Shown here: positions 12,214 through 34,289 of the stretch, piece by piece | Numbering within the stretch: the first letter of the stretch is position 1 | How the letters are laid out: every line of letters starts with the position of its first letter | From: Ostreococcus lucimarinus | Lineage: Eukaryota | Assembly: GCA_000092065.1 (NCBI GenBank) | Contig: CP000589.1 | Reading direction: 5' to 3' (one strand) | Length of the DNA stretch: 64,000 nucleotides | Program-made: the position numbers and the translations under genes | Notes under the pieces: model-generated | The model's input: only the letters and a program-made list of their open reading frames with translations | Databases searched by the model: none | What the model was told of the DNA's origin: nothing

Positions 12214-14916
12214 TTATGACGGAGCGCCGAGGTAGGCGCACACGCGCAAGATGTCGCCGAAGACGCCGCCGGCGGTGACCTCGGCGCCGGCGCCCGGACC
12301 GCGAACGACTAAGGGTCCAGCGGACGTGTAATACTTTGTGGTGAAGGAGACGATGTTGTCGCTGCCCTTGAGCTGAGCGAACGGATGGTCGGCGGGGTAA
12401 CGACGGAGTTCGACCGAGCCCGTGCCGTTCTTGACGTCGACGACACCGACGAAGCACAAGACTTCGCCCGCGGCGGCGGCTTCTTCTTGCTTGGACAAAA
12501 TATCGCCGTCGTACTTGGGAAGCTCCTTCATGAACTCATCCACGCTTTCGATGTCACGCAACGGCTCGGGAACGAGAGATTGAATCGGGACATCGCTGAG
12601 CTCGATGTTCAAACCGCATTCGCGCGCCAAGATGGTCACCTTGCGAGCGACGTCCATACCGCTCAAGTCGTCGCGGGGATCGGGTTCGGTGTATCCCGCT
12701 TCCTTGGCCTGCGCCACGATGTCGCTGAACTTCTTGCCCGGTTCCAAGGTGTTGAAGATGTAAGAAAGCGTACCGGAGAAGATGCCTTCGATGCGCTCGA
12801 CCTTGTCGCCCGAGTTTCGCAGGCTTTGAAGCGTGGCGATGATGGGCAAGCCGGCGCCGACGGTGCCTTCATAAAAGTAGTGCGTGTACGAATTACGTTG
12901 AATGGAACGCAATTCCTTGTAATACGCGAGCGGTCCGCTGTTCGCCTTCTTATTCGGCGTGACGACGTGCAATCCCTTGGACAACCACTCCTTGTAGTGA
13001 CCCGCGACGACGTCGGAGGCGGAGCAGTCGACGATGATTTGGTTTGGCGCCTCCGACTCGAGCACGTGCTTTGTGAAGTCGTCCATGTTCGCCTGCACAC
13101 CACTAGCGTATTCGTCTTCCCACGAATCTAAGTCGATCGCACCGTCGCTGAGCAACATCTTACGACCGCCCGTGATGGCAACCACGCGCAGTTCAACCGC
13201 AAACTCGTCTTGGAGCGTTTCGAGTTGTTCCTTCATTTGGCGAAGCAACGTCTTGCCGACGAGGCCTGGTCCCACGAGACCGACGCTAATCGCGGTCTTG
13301 GAGAGGTAGAATCGACCATGAGCGGCTTGAAGGGCCTTATTGACGTCCTTCTTGGAGACGACGACCGTGATGTTGTACTCGGACGCCCCTTGCGCGATGG
13401 CGATGACGTTGACGGCGCTCTGCGCCAGCGCTTCAAACAACATCGCCGACACGCCCGGCGTTTGGCACATGTTCTGCCCGACGATGGCCAAGATGGAACA
13501 ATCCTTCAAAGGGAGGATTCGAGAGATGCGACCGGCGGCGATGGCTTTCTCGAACGTCTTGTTGAGCGCCGCGACTGCCGCGTCCGCCTCGTGCGAGCGA
13601 ACCGCAAAGCAAATGGAGTGCTCCGAGGAAGCTTGAGAAATCATAACCACGTTGCAGCCAGCTTCCTTGACGGCTTTGAACACAGTGTTGGCCGTGCCCG
13701 GCACACCAACCATGCCCGTACCCTCGACGTTGATGAGGCACACGTCGTCGATGGTGGCGATACCCTTGACGAGCTCGCCGCTCATGTCGCGAGTCTCAAA
13801 CTTGCCGACGTTGCCCTCATCCCCGGCGGGCAGCGGGCACGCCATGCCGATGGACGTCCCTGGCGCGGCTTGGTTGAAGTAGTTGCGCAACGTGACTGGG
13901 ATGTTGTACTTCATCGCCGGTAAAGTCGTGCGCGGGTGGAGAACGTTGGCGCCAAAGTACGCGAGTTCCCACGCTTCGTTGTAGGAAATCGAGTTCAGGC
14001 ACTTGGCCCCCTTCACGCGGCGAGGATCGGCGCTGAATACGCCATCGACGTCGGTCCAGATGGTGATATTTCTCGCTTGCGTGAGCGCACCGAAAATTGT
14101 GGCGGAGTAATCGGAACCGTTACGTTTGAGCGTCGTCGGCACGCCCTCCGGCGTCCTCGCGATGAAACCAGTCACCATGACCACGGCGCCCTCTTGCATA
14201 TGCTCGTCGTACCACTTATCCAAGTTCGCGTTGGACAAGCTGTAGTCGACGTCCACGCCGCCGTCCTCGGATTCTGTGACGACGAGAATGTCTCGCGCGT
14301 CGATCCAGACCGCCTTGCCCCCCTTGCAGCGAATCGTCGCCGCGCACAAGCGCGCCGTCCAGAGCTCTCCGTGTCCGACGACGAAATCCCCGAACGCATC
14401 GGTCGAGCAACCGGCGATGTAAATAGCCTTAAACATCGCTCGTAAATCGTTCAATTCCTCGTTGAACGCCGCGATGTACGCGTCGTACTCGGCTTTATCC
14501 GTCAACAAAGCCTTCGCCGTGGACACGTGCTTATCCTCGAGCTTCGTCAACTCCGCCGCGTACGTATCGTCCCGTTTCGCCGCCATATCCGTCGCGTTTA
14601 TCAAGCAATCCGTCACCTTTGGTTCACCCTTCACCGCGACGCCCATCGCGGACACGATCCCCATCGTCAACTTGGAATCATTCTTCATCAAGAGCTCGCA
14701 CACGCCGCCGATGCGCTCCGCGCTCCCGACGCACGTCCCCCCGAACCTATCGTCGAACCGTTCGCCAGCCGTCAGTCTTCGCGCGCCGCGTCGCGTTCGT
14801 GCCCTTCCCCAAATCACCCGACCGTCGTCGTCGCGCGTCGCGCGCGCCCTCGCGCGCGCCCTCGCCGCGTCCGCGTCCCGTCCCGCCCTCGCGTTCAGGT
14901 TTTCCCCGCGGATCAT
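12214..14916 (-). CDS. AKHSD: Bifunctional aspartokinase / homoserine dehydrogenase (chloroplast type)
   Basis: RFGGTCVGSAERI...KVTD (AK N-terminus), VSAMGV, ACT-domain region, then HSD motifs LVGPGLVGKTLL...VDCSASD...HVVTPNKKA...YEGTVGAGLPII...GIFSGTLSYIFN...EPDPRDDLSGMDVARKV...FVGVVD. Start taken at MIRGENL (ATG 14914-14916), giving 900 aa. The longer listed ORF (to 16377) is antisense to the MATE gene. Confidence 0.9.
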   Translation of the reverse strand: MIRGENLNARAGRDADAARARARARATRDDDGRVIWGRARTRRGARRLTAGERFDDRFGGTCVGSAERIGGVCELLMKNDSKLTMGIVSAMGVAVKGEPKVTDCLINATDMAAKRDDTYAAELTKLEDKHVSTAKALLTDKAEYDAYIAAFNEELNDLRAMFKAIYIAGCSTDAFGDFVVGHGELWTARLCAATIRCKGGKAVWIDARDILVVTESEDGGVDVDYSLSNANLDKWYDEHMQEGAVVMVTGFIARTPEGVPTTLKRNGSDYSATIFGALTQARNITIWTDVDGVFSADPRRVKGAKCLNSISYNEAWELAYFGANVLHPRTTLPAMKYNIPVTLRNYFNQAAPGTSIGMACPLPAGDEGNVGKFETRDMSGELVKGIATIDDVCLINVEGTGMVGVPGTANTVFKAVKEAGCNVVMISQASSEHSICFAVRSHEADAAVAALNKTFEKAIAAGRISRILPLKDCSILAIVGQNMCQTPGVSAMLFEALAQSAVNVIAIAQGASEYNITVVVSKKDVNKALQAAHGRFYLSKTAISVGLVGPGLVGKTLLRQMKEQLETLQDEFAVELRVVAITGGRKMLLSDGAIDLDSWEDEYASGVQANMDDFTKHVLESEAPNQIIVDCSASDVVAGHYKEWLSKGLHVVTPNKKANSGPLAYYKELRSIQRNSYTHYFYEGTVGAGLPIIATLQSLRNSGDKVERIEGIFSGTLSYIFNTLEPGKKFSDIVAQAKEAGYTEPDPRDDLSGMDVARKVTILARECGLNIELSDVPIQSLVPEPLRDIESVDEFMKELPKYDGDILSKQEEAAAAGEVLCFVGVVDVKNGTGSVELRRYPADHPFAQLKGSDNIVSFTTKYYTSAGPLVVRGPGAGAEVTAGGVFGDILRVCAYLGAPS

Positions 14917-15427
14917 CCATCGCGCGCGCTGTCCCGCGTCGCGTCCGTCGCGCGCGCCCTCTCGCGCGGTCGCGCGTCGCGAATCATCGTCCCGCATCGC
15001 GCGCCGTCGTTCGCACGCACTTGTGCACGTCCCAATCGCTTCCGCGCGGGATCGCCGCGCGCGTCTCGAGGTTTCGCCGCGTCGTCGTCGCGCGCGGCGC
15101 GCCTCGCGCGTCGAGCGCGCGCCGGCGCGCGAGCGCGCGTCGCGACGCGACGGGCGCCGTTCGGTGCGACGCGTGTGCGGACATGGCGCTCGGCGGCGTC
15201 CGCGCGGCGGAGTGTCGCGCGCGCGCCGGCGCGCGCGCGCGGGATGGCGTAGCTTTGTATGGGTAAACAGTGTGCGTGTATGGATATCCGCGGTCGGTCG
15301 GACGCGAACGGTCGCGCGACGCCGCCGACGACGACGACGGCGACGCGCGCGCGCACTCCGCGACGCGGTCGACGGCGCGGCGCGCACCGCGAGCGTCCGC
15401 GCGCGCGCGTCGGCGCTCGACCGCGCG

Positions 15428-17158
15428 ATGCTCGCGCGCGTCGGCGTCGGCGTCGGCGCGCGACCGCGCGGCGGCGGCTCGGGGACGGGACGCGCGACGC
15501 GACGCGCGGCGACGGCGACGCGAGGACGCGCGAACGGACGAACGCGCGACGAAACGCGCGGTTTTGGCGCGCGCGCGCGCGCGCGCGTCGCGGTCGCGAA
15601 GACGCGAGCGCGCGAAGGGGCGACGCGAGGCGGGACGCGCGGCGACGGGACGCGACGCGAGGCGACGCGCGACGACGACGACGCGAGGACGCGCGATGCG
15701 GGCGGCGCGGACTCGGTGAAGGGCGCGCGCGGTGAGGACGCGCGCGATGGACGATTGCCGACGATCCCGCGAGGGACGTACGCGTCGCTGGCGACGGCGC
15801 TCGTGGCGCTCGGTTTTCCGGCGCTGTTGAACAGCGTGAACGAACCGGTGGTGTCGCTGTTGGAGACCGTGCTCGTGGCCAGGGTCGGGACGGTGTTTTT
15901 AGCCGCGCTCGCGCCGGCGTCGGCGTTGTTCGGGCTCGTCGAGGAGGTGTGCTTCGCGTTTAGCGTCGTGGTGACGACGGCGGTGAGTTCGGCGCGCGCC
16001 GAGTTTGAAGACGTCGACGCCGCGGTGCCGGAACGCGTGAAACAGACGGTGAGCATGAGCGTGATGGCGTCGTTCATCGCCGGTCTCGGGCTTGCGATCG
16101 GACTGCAAGCGCTGTACGGACCCATTTGCAAAATTATGGTGGTGCCGCGAGAGGTCGAGGCGCTGTTGCGCTCGTACACGGTGTTGCGGTGCGCGGGATT
16201 GCCCATGTTCGGCGCCGCAAACGCGCTCGAGGGGGTGTTTCTCGGAAGCAAAGACGCGCTGACGCCCATGACCGGATGGCTCGTCGCCGGTGTCATCACC
16301 GTCGCGCTGCAGCTGTTCTTCATTACACCGCAGATGAGCGCAAACGCGGCGGTGCGTTGGGCGGGCATCGCCCTCACCGTGGGTCAGACGTTCATTTTCT
16401 TCTATCTGTGGAAGATTGCGCATGGGCGCGGATTATTTTCAATGCGAAGCGTGTTCAAGGGCGCCGAGAGCGTGGGCGCGGCGATCGCGCGCTTGTACAG
16501 GCGTCTTGAGGAGGAGCACATCGCGAGCGAGTTTCGGTGGTTGGTACTGAGCGCGACGGCGCGTATGACGACGTACGTCATCATCACCTCGTGTGCCACG
16601 AATCTCGGGGTGATTTCTGCGGCGGTCAATAAGACGTTGCTGGATCTGTATATTTTATTAGGGTTATGTGCCGAGCCAGTGTTCACCGTCGGCAACGTCT
16701 TATTGCCGAGGAAGAGACGCAGTCTCGTCGAGGTCTTGACGTACCGACGCGCGCTGTTTTACGTCGCGCTGTTCATGGGGTTCACGCTCGCATGCTTGGC
16801 GTACATCCTTTGCGGCTCAACTTTGCTCTCGCACGATCCACACGTCCACGCAGTGGCGACCTCAATGCGGAGCTTGGTCGCGGTGACAATCGGTTTGTCC
16901 ACCGCGGCGTACGCCACCGACGGCTGCGTCATCGGTCTCGGCGGGGCCAGCTTCGTCGGTGCGGCGCAGATGATCAACACATCAATATTTGTGTTGGTTT
17001 TCATCGCGTTCAGGACGATTTACGGCGCCGCGACATCGCTCCAGCACCTCTGGCTGGCGCTCTTGCTGTTCCAGGCGCTCCGCCTGGCGGAGCACGTTTG
17101 GAAATTACGCCACGACGAGCGCGCGCTCGCGTTTCCTCGCACCGCCGCCTTGGCGTAG
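15428..17158 (+). CDS. MATE (multidrug and toxic compound extrusion) family transporter
   Basis: 12 predicted TM helices with MATE-like repeats (ALLNSVNEPVVSLLETVLVARVGT..., GLPMFGAANALEGVFLGSKDALTPM...). Start at MLARVG (ATG 15428), followed by an R/G-rich presequence. Divergent from the aspartokinase-homoserine dehydrogenase gene, with ~510 bp between the start codons. Confidence 0.8.
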   Translation: MLARVGVGVGARPRGGGSGTGRATRRAATATRGRANGRTRDETRGFGARARARVAVAKTRAREGATRGGTRGDGTRREATRDDDDARTRDAGGADSVKGARGEDARDGRLPTIPRGTYASLATALVALGFPALLNSVNEPVVSLLETVLVARVGTVFLAALAPASALFGLVEEVCFAFSVVVTTAVSSARAEFEDVDAAVPERVKQTVSMSVMASFIAGLGLAIGLQALYGPICKIMVVPREVEALLRSYTVLRCAGLPMFGAANALEGVFLGSKDALTPMTGWLVAGVITVALQLFFITPQMSANAAVRWAGIALTVGQTFIFFYLWKIAHGRGLFSMRSVFKGAESVGAAIARLYRRLEEEHIASEFRWLVLSATARMTTYVIITSCATNLGVISAAVNKTLLDLYILLGLCAEPVFTVGNVLLPRKRRSLVEVLTYRRALFYVALFMGFTLACLAYILCGSTLLSHDPHVHAVATSMRSLVAVTIGLSTAAYATDGCVIGLGGASFVGAAQMINTSIFVLVFIAFRTIYGAATSLQHLWLALLLFQALRLAEHVWKLRHDERALAFPRTAALA

Positions 17159-31277: not shown

Positions 31278-31356
31278 TTTCACACCTAGCCACGATAGAC
31301 AGAACCTCCGTCGCGCGCGTAACCGCCGCAGTCGGCGCCTCGCGCGCGCTCTCCCC

Positions 31357-32850
31357 ATGCGCGACCGCGCGCGCGAGATTCGCCTCGTCACCCTCGGTCT
31401 GTCGCCCCGGGACACGCACGCGAGATGCGTCGACCTCGCGCGCGAGCTCGACGACGCGGTGCGCGACGTGACGGCGCGCATCGACGCCCGCGCGACCGCA
31501 CACGCGAATGCGCTCGCGACGCTTCGACGACGCATCGAACACCTGCGCGCGCGCGTGCGCGACGTCGGGTCGAGCTCGAGCGCGCGGACGGTGATGCACG
31601 CGGCGCGGTACCCGATGGGCGCGCGAAACGGAGACGTGGAACGGATGTTCGGGACGAGCGCGCCGACGACGGCGGCGAGCGCGGCGGAGGACGAAGGCGA
31701 CGCGGAACGGAAAATGATGGAGGAGTTACTGGCGATCGAACGACAGACGGTACATCGAGAGATGACGGCGGAGATGTTTTATGCGAGCGAGACGCGCGAG
31801 AGCGCGAGCGGGCGCGCGCGGGTGGTGAGCGGGCGGGACGGATTGGGGACGTTGCCGGCGAGTTTGGAGAGCTTGAACGAGTGTTTGTTGTTTAATTCCG
31901 ACGTGAATCCGTACGTGGAGTACGCGCTGGTGGATAATTTGATGGACGGTGAGGACGATGGTGGTCGGGGCGATGAAGACGGCGAAGACGAGGGAACGCG
32001 CGAGGGAGGGGAGTACGAGGACGATTGGAAAAATTTGGCCGAGGCGCCAAAGTCGATGCAAAACGCGTTGTATGATTCCATGCAAGCCACGCAGTTTGGA
32101 TTTCGACCGACGATGGGCGCGATGCCGTCGCTGGATTTACCCACATCGCTGCCTTCGTTACGCTATGCGGCGGACATCAGCTGGTCCGGGGCGACGAAGA
32201 CGGCGGCCCCCATAGCGCCTTCGTCCACGGCGACGCCGCTACCTGACGTCGTCGTGACGCCCTCGGTGCTGGCGCCGCCGCCACCTTTGCCACCGACGCC
32301 GCCACCACCGCCACCACTGCCTCGGGAAAATTTGCACGCGTCCGCGCCGCCGGCGCAGCTCCCACCGGGCGCGAACGTCGGCGACGGCGGGCGGAGCGCG
32401 CTCATGGACGCGATTCGCAACAAGGACAACAAATCGAGGTTGCGCAAACGTGGGTCAGCGGCGCCGAGCGCGGACGCCGCACCGCCGCCACCTCGCGGCG
32501 CGCCGATGGAGCCCGACTTACGAGGCGCGCTCATGGACGCTATTCGCGCGAAACCGATGCTGAAATCGTCGAGTCGCCCCGAGTTGAGCGACGGCGATCC
32601 GCCCGCCGCGGCGCCGCCCGCGCCGCCGCGACAAATGTCCATGATGGAGGAGTTAGCGAACAGTTTAGGACGACGTCGCTCCGCCATCGTGGCATCCGGC
32701 GACCACGACGTGCGCGAGAAGGTCATCGAGACGACGACCCAACGCCCGAGTGGCATCGTCGGCTTGGGCGATTTCATCAAGGCGAAGGAGAGTGCGACGA
32801 ACTGCGACGAAGACCAAGACGACGACGTGAGCGATTGGGATAGCGACTAA
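31357..32850 (+). CDS. WASH-like Arp2/3 nucleation-promoting factor (WAHD1-like N-terminus, poly-Pro, two WH2 motifs, acidic Trp-containing C-terminus)
   Basis: N-terminus EIRLVTLGLSPRDTHARCVDLARELDDAVRDVTARIDARATAHANALATLRRRIEHLRARVRDVGSSSSARTVMHAARYP parallels human WASH1 ([82 protein letters not shown]). PPPPLPPTPPPPPPLP. WH2 RSALMDAIRNKDNKSRLRK and RGALMDAIRAKPMLKS. Tail DEDQDDDVSDWDSD (VCA-type). Confidence 0.6.
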   Translation: MRDRAREIRLVTLGLSPRDTHARCVDLARELDDAVRDVTARIDARATAHANALATLRRRIEHLRARVRDVGSSSSARTVMHAARYPMGARNGDVERMFGTSAPTTAASAAEDEGDAERKMMEELLAIERQTVHREMTAEMFYASETRESASGRARVVSGRDGLGTLPASLESLNECLLFNSDVNPYVEYALVDNLMDGEDDGGRGDEDGEDEGTREGGEYEDDWKNLAEAPKSMQNALYDSMQATQFGFRPTMGAMPSLDLPTSLPSLRYAADISWSGATKTAAPIAPSSTATPLPDVVVTPSVLAPPPPLPPTPPPPPPLPRENLHASAPPAQLPPGANVGDGGRSALMDAIRNKDNKSRLRKRGSAAPSADAAPPPPRGAPMEPDLRGALMDAIRAKPMLKSSSRPELSDGDPPAAAPPAPPRQMSMMEELANSLGRRRSAIVASGDHDVREKVIETTTQRPSGIVGLGDFIKAKESATNCDEDQDDDVSDWDSD

Positions 32851-32902
32851 GAATATAGAACTAGACGCGCTAAGATGCTACCACCGCCCCTGATCGCGAC
32901 GA

Positions 32903-33646
32903 TCAAAGCTTTGACCGCCGCGCGTTGAACGCGGCAAACTTTTCCCGCGCCACGGCTCTGTAATTCGCGAACGCGCGCCGCCGTTCCGCCGCGCGCGCCT
33001 CATCCACGCCCAGCCCATCGTGAATCGCGCGCTTAATCGCGCTCGCCCCTCCCGGCGCCATCTCGCACACCGCCATCGCCATCTCCATCGCCTTCGCCTT
33101 CGCCGACGCCGCGTCCTTCGTCGTCGCGCACGTCAACCCCAGCGCCTCCGCCCGCCTCGCGTCCATCGCTCGTCCGAACACCGAGCACGCCCGCGCCGCG
33201 TTCGCCCCGACGCTCCGACTCAGCTTCACGCTCAGTCCCCAGCTCGGTAAGATCCCGATCGTCGCGTGCGTGTCCACGAACCGCGCGTCCTCGCTCGCCA
33301 CCAACGCGTCGCACCCGAGCGCGAGCTCGAATCCCGCGTTCACGCAGTCCCCGTGCACCGCGCCCACGATCGGCGCCTCGCACGCCTCCATCGCCAGAAC
33401 CGGATCGCTCGCGACGTCCCGCTCGTCCATCGCGAACACCTCGCGCGCGGCGCGCAGATCGATTCCGCTGCAAAAGTGTCTCGACGCGCCGCTCCCGCAC
33501 AGCACGACGACGCGCGCGCCGTCGTCCCGCGCGAGCGCCCGCGCGAGCGCGCGCACCGCGTCCGCGCTCGCGAGCGCGTTCCCGCGCGCGGGATTATCGA
33601 TCGTGATCACGCGCACGCCGCGCGCGTCGAGCGTCACGTCGATCAT
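32903..33646 (-). CDS. Enoyl-CoA hydratase/isomerase (crotonase) family protein
   Basis: MIDVTLDARGVRVITIDNPARGNAL...VVLCGSGASRHFCSGIDL...PIVGAVHGDCVNAGFELALGCDALVASEDARF...TIGILPSWG, the crotonase oxyanion-hole pattern. ATG at 33644-33646. Convergent with WASH, 52 bp between stops. Confidence 0.8.
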   Translation of the reverse strand: MIDVTLDARGVRVITIDNPARGNALASADAVRALARALARDDGARVVVLCGSGASRHFCSGIDLRAAREVFAMDERDVASDPVLAMEACEAPIVGAVHGDCVNAGFELALGCDALVASEDARFVDTHATIGILPSWGLSVKLSRSVGANAARACSVFGRAMDARRAEALGLTCATTKDAASAKAKAMEMAMAVCEMAPGGASAIKRAIHDGLGVDEARAAERRRAFANYRAVAREKFAAFNARRSKL

Positions 33647-34289
33647 CGCGTCGCGTAGCTCGCGTCGCGCGCGCGTCGAAGTGCGCGACGCGTCGCTCGC
33701 GCGCGCCCGCGGCGCGTCCACTCCGATTCCAATTCCAATTCCAACGCGTTCGTTCGCGACGCCGCGCGACGCGTCGAGGCGACGTCTCGCGCGCTCGCCT
33801 CGCGTCGCGTCGCGCTCTACTCGGTCGCCTCGCCGCGTCGCGCGTCGTCGCCGAACGTCGGCGCGGGCGCTTTCGTCGTCGTCGCGCGTCGCGCGGCTTC
33901 GAATCGCGCCGTCGCGGCTTTCGCCGGATCGTACGTCGATCCGGGGAGCTTGTACCGCGGCTCGCCGTTCGGCGGCGGCGGCGTGCACGGCGTGATCATA
34001 TCGCACGTCACCTCGGCGCGCGCGGCGGACGCCGTCGCGAGCGTCGTCGCGAGGGCGACGGTGACGACGCATCCGACGATCGCGCGGTCGCGCGCGGCGT
34101 CGGCGTCGGCGTCGGCGGCGCGCGACGCGCGGGCGACGCGCGCGCGCGGCGTCGCGCGGCGCGCGCGCGCGGGCGTCGACGCGCGCGCGGCGGGGCGCGC
34201 GAGAGGCGCGCGGGCGAGCATGGCGACGGCGCGATGGGCGTCGACGAGTGCCGCAACGGTCGCGACGACACTCGCGCGCGACGCGATCG

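Follow-up and report, generated by a model that had tools for sequence, protein, structure and literature searches.

A probable WASH orthologue with two tandem WH2 motifs in the green alga Ostreococcus lucimarinus

Does Ostreococcus lucimarinus (class Mamiellophyceae, family Bathycoccaceae) encode an orthologue of WASH, or a protein that resembles it through a common tail? The question was raised by a gene located in a 64,000-nucleotide stretch of contig CP000589.1, hereafter the window. A sequence-only reading of the window had described the product as a WASH-like activator of Arp2/3 with a WASH-related region of about 100 amino acids at its N-terminus, a long proline tract, two WH2 motifs and an acidic C-terminus. 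The analysis presented here indicates that the intact gene encodes a WASH homology domain (WAHD), a proline tract, two WH2 motifs, a C helix and an acidic tail containing tryptophan, all of them conserved across many algal relatives. On this sequence evidence the protein is very probably the WASH (WASHC1) orthologue of O. lucimarinus, a class I nucleation-promoting factor for the Arp2/3 complex.

The open reading frame (ORF) runs from its ATG to the stop codon without interruption and there are in-frame stops 5' of the ATG. The encoded protein is an exact match to the O. lucimarinus CCE9901 entry XP_001419630.1 / ABO97923.1 / UniProt A4S306, which is labelled "predicted protein" at NCBI, "WH2 domain-containing protein" in UniRef and "WAS family protein 1" at JGI. 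The sequence-only reading had correctly placed the DNA in a green alga of the class Mamiellophyceae. Table 1 shows the features of the gene and its product.

Table 1. Features of the WASH gene of O. lucimarinus and of its product, in window coordinates.
Feature	Residues	Position	Strand	Basis or remark
Probable WASH orthologue, complete single-exon coding sequence	497 aa plus stop	31357..32850	+	ORF list and exact-sequence look-up
Long N-terminal alpha-helix (predicted)	17-72	31405..31572	+	AlphaFold2 block, pLDDT 81-95
WASH homology domain (WAHD)	18-297	31408..32247	+	Pfam PF11945
Conserved WASH motif DGLGTLPASLESLNECLLFNSDVNPYVEY	161-189	31837..31923	+	Alignment of 12 homologues
Internal acidic Trp-containing motif EYEDDWKNLAEAP	217-231	32005-32049		Inside the WAHD region
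Conserved WASH motif PIAPSSTATPLPDV	285-298	32209..32250	+	Alignment of 12 homologues
Poly-proline tract APPPPLPPTPPPPPPLP	306-322	32272..32322	+	Sequence; P307-P320 columns conserved
WH2 motif 1 (V1) GRSALMDAIRNKDNKSRLRKR	345-365	32389..32451	+	Pfam WH2, Cordon-bleu matches, helix, conservation
WH2 motif 2 (V2) DLRGALMDAIRAKPMLKSS	387-405	32515..32571	+	Pfam WH2, Cordon-bleu alignment, helix, conservation
C (central/connector) region RQMSMMEELANSLGRRRSAIVASGD	425-449	32629..32703	+	Published C-domain pattern, helix, algal conservation
C-to-A spacer, ~33 aa	450-482	32704..32802	+	Short conserved element, G469 invariant
Acidic (A) tail CDEDQDDDVSDWDSD	483-497	32803..32847	+	Trp = Arp2/3-binding residue

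The N-terminal WASH homology domain

The strongest evidence for the identity of the protein comes from its N-terminal region. A Pfam scan aligned residues 18-297 with positions 16-271 of the WASH_WAHD profile (PF11945), that is, with 256 of its 292 positions, at E = 8e-24. The score of 85 bits is about 60 bits higher than the gathering cutoff of the family (24.2 bits). The similarity is therefore real and extends well beyond the N-terminal 100 residues or so to which it had been assigned. The same scan, carried to a limit of E <= 10, found no WASP WH1 domain, no CRIB/PBD and no SCAR/WAVE homology domain. WASH_WAHD was the only family detected at the N-terminus, and the identification as WASH in preference to SCAR/WAVE or WASP, for which a match of this region to one of those families had been named as the contrary outcome, held.

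A word-indexed protein search returned 19 relatives, every one of them with a precomputed WASH_WAHD domain. Twelve relatives, which share between 26 and 58% identity with the query, were aligned, and the positions that are invariant in this alignment include those of the WAHD motifs, the V1 core, G469 and W494. Kollmar, Lbik and Enge (2012; BMC Res Notes 5:88; PMC3298513) described, for all WASH proteins, short motifs specific to the family that lie after the N-terminal helix and before the proline region. Two motifs of this kind, DGLGTLPASLESLNECLLFNSDVNPYVEY (DGLGTLP...LLFNSDVNPY) and PIAPSSTATPLPDV (IAPS...LP), are found in the algal protein and both fall within the Pfam WASH_WAHD match. 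Residues G162, L163, G164, P167, S172, L177, F179, N180, N184, P185 and Y186 of the former and A287, P288, S289, A292 and P296 of the latter are invariant. The first pairs with the corresponding motif of human WASH1 and the second with human GIAPSAPGTIPELP, in both cases as judged with an approximate human sequence. A BLASTP comparison with this approximate sequence, which is a lead and not a test, gave a collinear alignment over residues 23-346 (E = 2e-11, 26% identity) that takes in, in the same order, the GLGxLP...LLFN and IAPS motifs.

The internal motif EYEDDWKNLAEAP is kept in nine close algal homologues and absent from three more distant ones. It looks like an acidic motif of the kind that binds Arp2/3; its BLASTP pairing with the C-terminal EDEDDWES of the approximate human sequence was not significant (E = 1.8).

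An AlphaFold2 model built with the 12-sequence alignment (mean pLDDT 52, pTM 0.22) consists of one helix plus disorder. The long N-terminal helix is the sole confidently predicted structured element; short helices were predicted in V1 (residues 344-354), V2 (residues 388-398) and the C region (residues 429-445), and the remainder is disordered. As modelled, the protein has the layout commonly seen in WASP-family nucleation-promoting factors, with a long N-terminal helix followed by short V1, V2 and C helices and disorder. A fold search would give meaningless matches, because the model is one helix plus disorder. A sequence search of the PDB for a solved structure of WASH1, made once with the protein alone and once with the profile of its family, found none, and the matches obtained were limited to WH2/VCA modules.

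The proline tract and the V-V-C-A tail

The long proline tract of the sequence-only reading is present, and residues 295-425 have a proline content of 26%. The tract is presumed to bind profilin or SH3 domains.

Both WH2 motifs proposed in that reading were also recovered, by Pfam, by matches to Cordon-bleu, by predicted helices and by conservation. The tandem WH2 repeats of Cordon-bleu (PDB 4jhd) were matched by the single protein at E = 2.6e-4 and by the algal family profile at E = 1.1e-9, and one alignment of the profile spans V1 and V2. The similarity to Cordon-bleu is limited to the WH2 motifs. Among the 12 aligned homologues, the core of V1 (R346, L349, A352, I353 and R354) is invariant and the core residues of V2 (L392, M393 and A395) are at least 90% conserved. 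At the DNA level, the segments that encode the two WH2 helices (ALMDAIR; window 32396-32418 and 32525-32547) are identical at 22 of 23 nucleotides. A recent duplication of DNA was considered as the origin of the WH2 pair and rejected, the pair being common to homologues that are only 31-58% identical. The near-identity of the two segments could be due to strong codon bias or to gene conversion.

The acidic C-terminus (DEDQDDDVSDWDSD), ending in DDVSDWDSD, is as had been described: the last 20 residues include 10 acidic and no basic residues, and W494 is invariant in 12 of the 12 aligned homologues. The description of the tail as WH2-WH2-acidic named elements that are all there, but left out a canonical C helix and the spacer of about 33 residues that follows it. 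Residues M429, L433, L437, RRR439-441 and I444 fit exactly the C-domain pattern of Kollmar et al. (PMC3298513), and the region is conserved across the algal family in the alignment of 12 homologues. Because a canonical C region is present, the tail has the arrangement V-V-C-spacer-A. The spacer itself was considered as an unusual feature and this idea was dropped. The C-to-A spacer of human WASH1 is of similar length, about 30 residues.

When 1.84 billion cluster representatives were searched exhaustively with the family profile, 1,225 matched at E <= 1e-3, of which 240 had E <= 1e-30. Among the matches listed, most begin within the first 25 positions of the profile, i.e., in its WAHD part. 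The WASH family is large and well populated. To count WH2 cores, a simple regular expression was applied to the 150 best of the 1,225 representatives and to five further sequences. One core was found in 89 of the 108 sequences with an acidic tail containing tryptophan, none (by this pattern) in 13, and two in six, the O. lucimarinus protein included; this tandem share of about 6% is only approximate because the regular expression is crude. A further algal relative of 578 amino acids and 31% identity, P0031, also has two WH2 cores and the same V-V-C-A layout; the tail test did not detect its tail, which left it out of the 108. As far as these sequences indicate, the tandem WH2 arrangement is a minority but recurrent variant of WASH, conserved in the algal clade of Ostreococcus yet not unique to it.

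Weighing the identity and the role of the protein

The algal protein shares with human WASH1 and Dictyostelium WshA the WAHD, the GLGxLP...LLFN and IAPS motifs, the proline tract, WH2, the C helix, the spacer of about 30 residues and the acidic tail with its tryptophan, as well as the order of these elements and the overall length (about 470-500 amino acids). It differs from human WASH1 in having two tandem WH2 motifs instead of one and in its low identity over the WAHD (about 26%, with the approximate human sequence). In addition, the close algal family differs from WASHC1 by the extra acidic insert with tryptophan, EYEDDWKNLAEAP.

If the protein acts as its counterparts do, the steps can be sketched. 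The biology of WASH in animals and Dictyostelium on which the sketch draws was reportedly established by Derivery and co-workers in 2009, Gomez and Billadeau in 2009, and Jia and co-workers in 2010. By analogy with animal WASH, the N-terminal helix would bundle with CCDC53 and FAM21, joining them on a platform of strumpellin and SWIP; the resulting WASH regulatory complex of five subunits would be recruited to endosomal membranes. There, each WH2 motif would supply one actin monomer, and the C helix and the acidic tail with its tryptophan would bind and activate Arp2/3. The small branched actin patches so formed would help in the scission of membrane tubules and in the recycling of cargo. The second WH2 motif may raise the potency of the protein, as in N-WASP.

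Some observations weigh against this account. Taken singly, the WH2 motifs score under the Pfam cutoff of 23.1 bits (V1, 16.8 bits, E = 0.0053; V2, 14.5 bits, E = 0.03), and within the whole protein the two together reach 19.9 bits (E = 5.8e-4), still under that cutoff. Yanagisawa, Zhang and Szymanski (2013; Front Plant Sci 4:166; PMC3689024) stated that all five subunits of the WASH complex appear to have homologues encoded in O. lucimarinus; this statement cites Kollmar et al. 2012, and that paper (PMC3298513) puts the other members of the complex out of its scope. Finally, the cellular role may differ from that in animals because the Ostreococcus cell measures about 1 micrometre and has a minimal endomembrane system.

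Could the protein belong to another branch of the WASP family, SCAR/WAVE or WASP/N-WASP, and look like WASH only through the proline-VCA module that they have in common? In SCAR/WAVE proteins, too, a regulatory complex of five subunits is built by an N-terminal helix, after which come a proline region and a VCA module, and the structure of the WASH complex is regarded as analogous to that of the WAVE complex (Jia et al. 2010, cited in PMC3689024). N-WASP has the same V-V-C-A arrangement, and a tandem of WH2 motifs before C and A is typical of it. The VCA part of the family profile does match WAVE1 (3p8c_D, E = 5.8e-4; 4n78_D, E = 0.0035) and N-WASP (2vcp_D, E = 0.066), and profile positions 20-71 have a faint likeness to the N-terminal helix of WAVE1 (7usc_C, E = 0.027), which is weak, not significant and the only trace of a WAVE homology domain. 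However, these matches either sit in the common VCA module or are not significant. The WH1 and CRIB/GBD autoinhibitory module of N-WASP was not detected by Pfam at E <= 10, and in the N-terminal 300 residues the same scan detected WASH_WAHD alone, 60 bits past its cutoff. Membership of another branch is extremely unlikely and already largely refuted.

Another possibility, which we consider very improbable, is that a WASH scaffold carries a nucleator with tandem WH2 motifs, or a sequesterer of actin monomers, that works independently of Arp2/3 in the manner of Cordon-bleu or Spire. The best matches among solved structures are indeed the tandem WH2 repeats of Cordon-bleu, with the single protein as well as with the profile, and there are two WH2 motifs here compared with one in most WASH proteins. 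Cordon-bleu and Spire contain at least three WH2 motifs, or WH2 combined with KIND or another domain, and lack a CA region, whereas in the algal protein two WH2 motifs are followed by C and A. In general, the known WH2-only nucleators use at least three WH2 motifs or further domains. The canonical C helix and the acidic tail with its invariant tryptophan, which are the elements that engage Arp2/3, argue against independence from this complex, as does the report of ARP2/3 in Ostreococcus (PMC3298513). The gene could also be a decaying relic with no function, like the WASH fragments of some monocot genomes. WASH has been repeatedly lost or fragmented in Viridiplantae (PMC3298513), and the genome and cell of Ostreococcus are reduced. 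Against this, the frame is intact, all functional motifs show little or no variation among homologues with an overall identity of only 26-58%, the 90%-identity cluster of the O. lucimarinus protein has 83 members with the exact protein on 467 contigs, and a lineage at 31% identity (P0031) retains the V-V-C-A layout. With these observations, a relic has hardly any probability.

Within the identification as a WASH orthologue, a variant was considered in which the tandem-WH2 WASH of Ostreococcus and related picoplanktonic algae, with its EYEDDWKNLAEAP insert, would be functionally distinct, more potent and active beyond endosomal recycling. The role in question might be, for example, the scission of organelles or membranes at division in a non-phagocytic cell of about 1 micrometre. 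The sole support for a distinct role is the conservation of the layout, and we regard it as rather unlikely.

Published record and genomic surroundings

The protein is not new: public databases already list it, and papers of 2012 and 2013 described it. Kollmar et al. (PMC3298513) found that Ostreococcus species have WASH homologues as well as the ARP2/3 complex, and Yanagisawa et al. (PMC3689024) reported that the O. lucimarinus WASH has an intact WA domain. On Arp2/3 and the other four subunits of the WASH complex, what these papers state agrees with the prediction of the sequence-only reading that the genome encodes them. The Ostreococcus WASH of these two papers is the same protein from the same species, and both identified it as a WASH whose WA/VCA region is intact. 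The former paper found no ARP2, ARP3 or WASH in Micromonas and Chlorella. It recorded WASH from Physcomitrella, Selaginella and Picea, noted fragments of it in some monocots, and placed a loss in the ancestor of eudicots. According to the same paper, all WASH proteins have a single VCA, except those of trypanosomes (no WH2) and stramenopiles (two tandem VCA). Bock et al. (2021; PMC8245530) report WASH-complex subunits in Chloropicon, Crustomastix and Mesostigma, and the supplement has O. tauri and O. mediterraneus within its list of strains. Literature searches returned nothing useful on strumpellin in Ostreococcus, on Ostreococcus WASH and Arp2/3 after 2014, or on the WASH complex in the last eukaryotic common ancestor and Archaeplastida.

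The premise of the sequence-only reading that WASH was lost from land plants fits the loss placed in the ancestor of eudicots, but not the reports of WASH in a moss, a lycophyte and a conifer, and of fragments in some monocots, mentioned above. An ancestral WASH in Viridiplantae, to which that reading pointed, is already the accepted view (PMC3298513). The implied novelty fails because the protein had already been published in the same species and the premise on land plants is only partly right. Ostreococcus WASH is a data point for two accepted conclusions, the presence of WASH in the last eukaryotic common ancestor and its stepwise loss within Viridiplantae, as opposed to a loss at their origin. 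Finding the gene again adds no new inference, since Kollmar et al. had already drawn both, partly from Ostreococcus WASH. The tandem WH2 (V-V-C-A) layout was not found in PMC3298513, PMC3689024 or PMC8245530, and may be slightly new. Ostreococcus would offer a very small cell for the study of a complete WASH/Arp2/3 system, and the tandem-WH2 variant could be compared in vitro with WASH proteins that have a single WH2 motif.

The gene lies in a densely packed region. Upstream, 79 nucleotides (window 31278-31356) separate its start codon from the end of a MYST histone acetyltransferase gene; downstream, 52 nucleotides (window 32851-32902) separate its stop codon from the end of a convergent enoyl-CoA hydratase gene. 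Tight packing with such short spacers is typical of the compact Ostreococcus genome. Genes located farther away encode a RING protein, an aspartokinase-homoserine dehydrogenase, an ion channel, a CASP golgin, pyruvate phosphate dikinase, a CLC channel, CLASP and a GYF protein. The neighbourhood consists of unrelated housekeeping genes, none of which informs the function of WASH.

The P0031 gene (L001:3001-4737, + strand) comes from a Tara Oceans scaffold whose GC content is 69.7%, and members of its cluster are on contigs of up to about 2 Mb. Its immediate neighbour (L001:1881-2702, + strand) encodes an enoyl-CoA hydratase whose homologue adjoins WASH in the window (32903-34072, - strand; 38% identity, E = 4e-40). 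Since homologous enoyl-CoA hydratase genes stand beside both WASH genes, the adjacency is conserved; the orientation differs. Should the lineage of P0031 prove to be Micromonas, it would contradict the 2012 statement that this genus has neither WASH nor ARP2/3.

Elsewhere in the window, the ORF of the bifunctional aspartokinase-homoserine dehydrogenase (window 12214-16377, - strand) is 1,387 amino acids long, and its first Pfam domain starts only at about residue 545. The long N-terminus may be due to an over-extended ORF with a GTG start, to a transit peptide or other N-terminal extension, or to an unrecognised upstream gene or exon.

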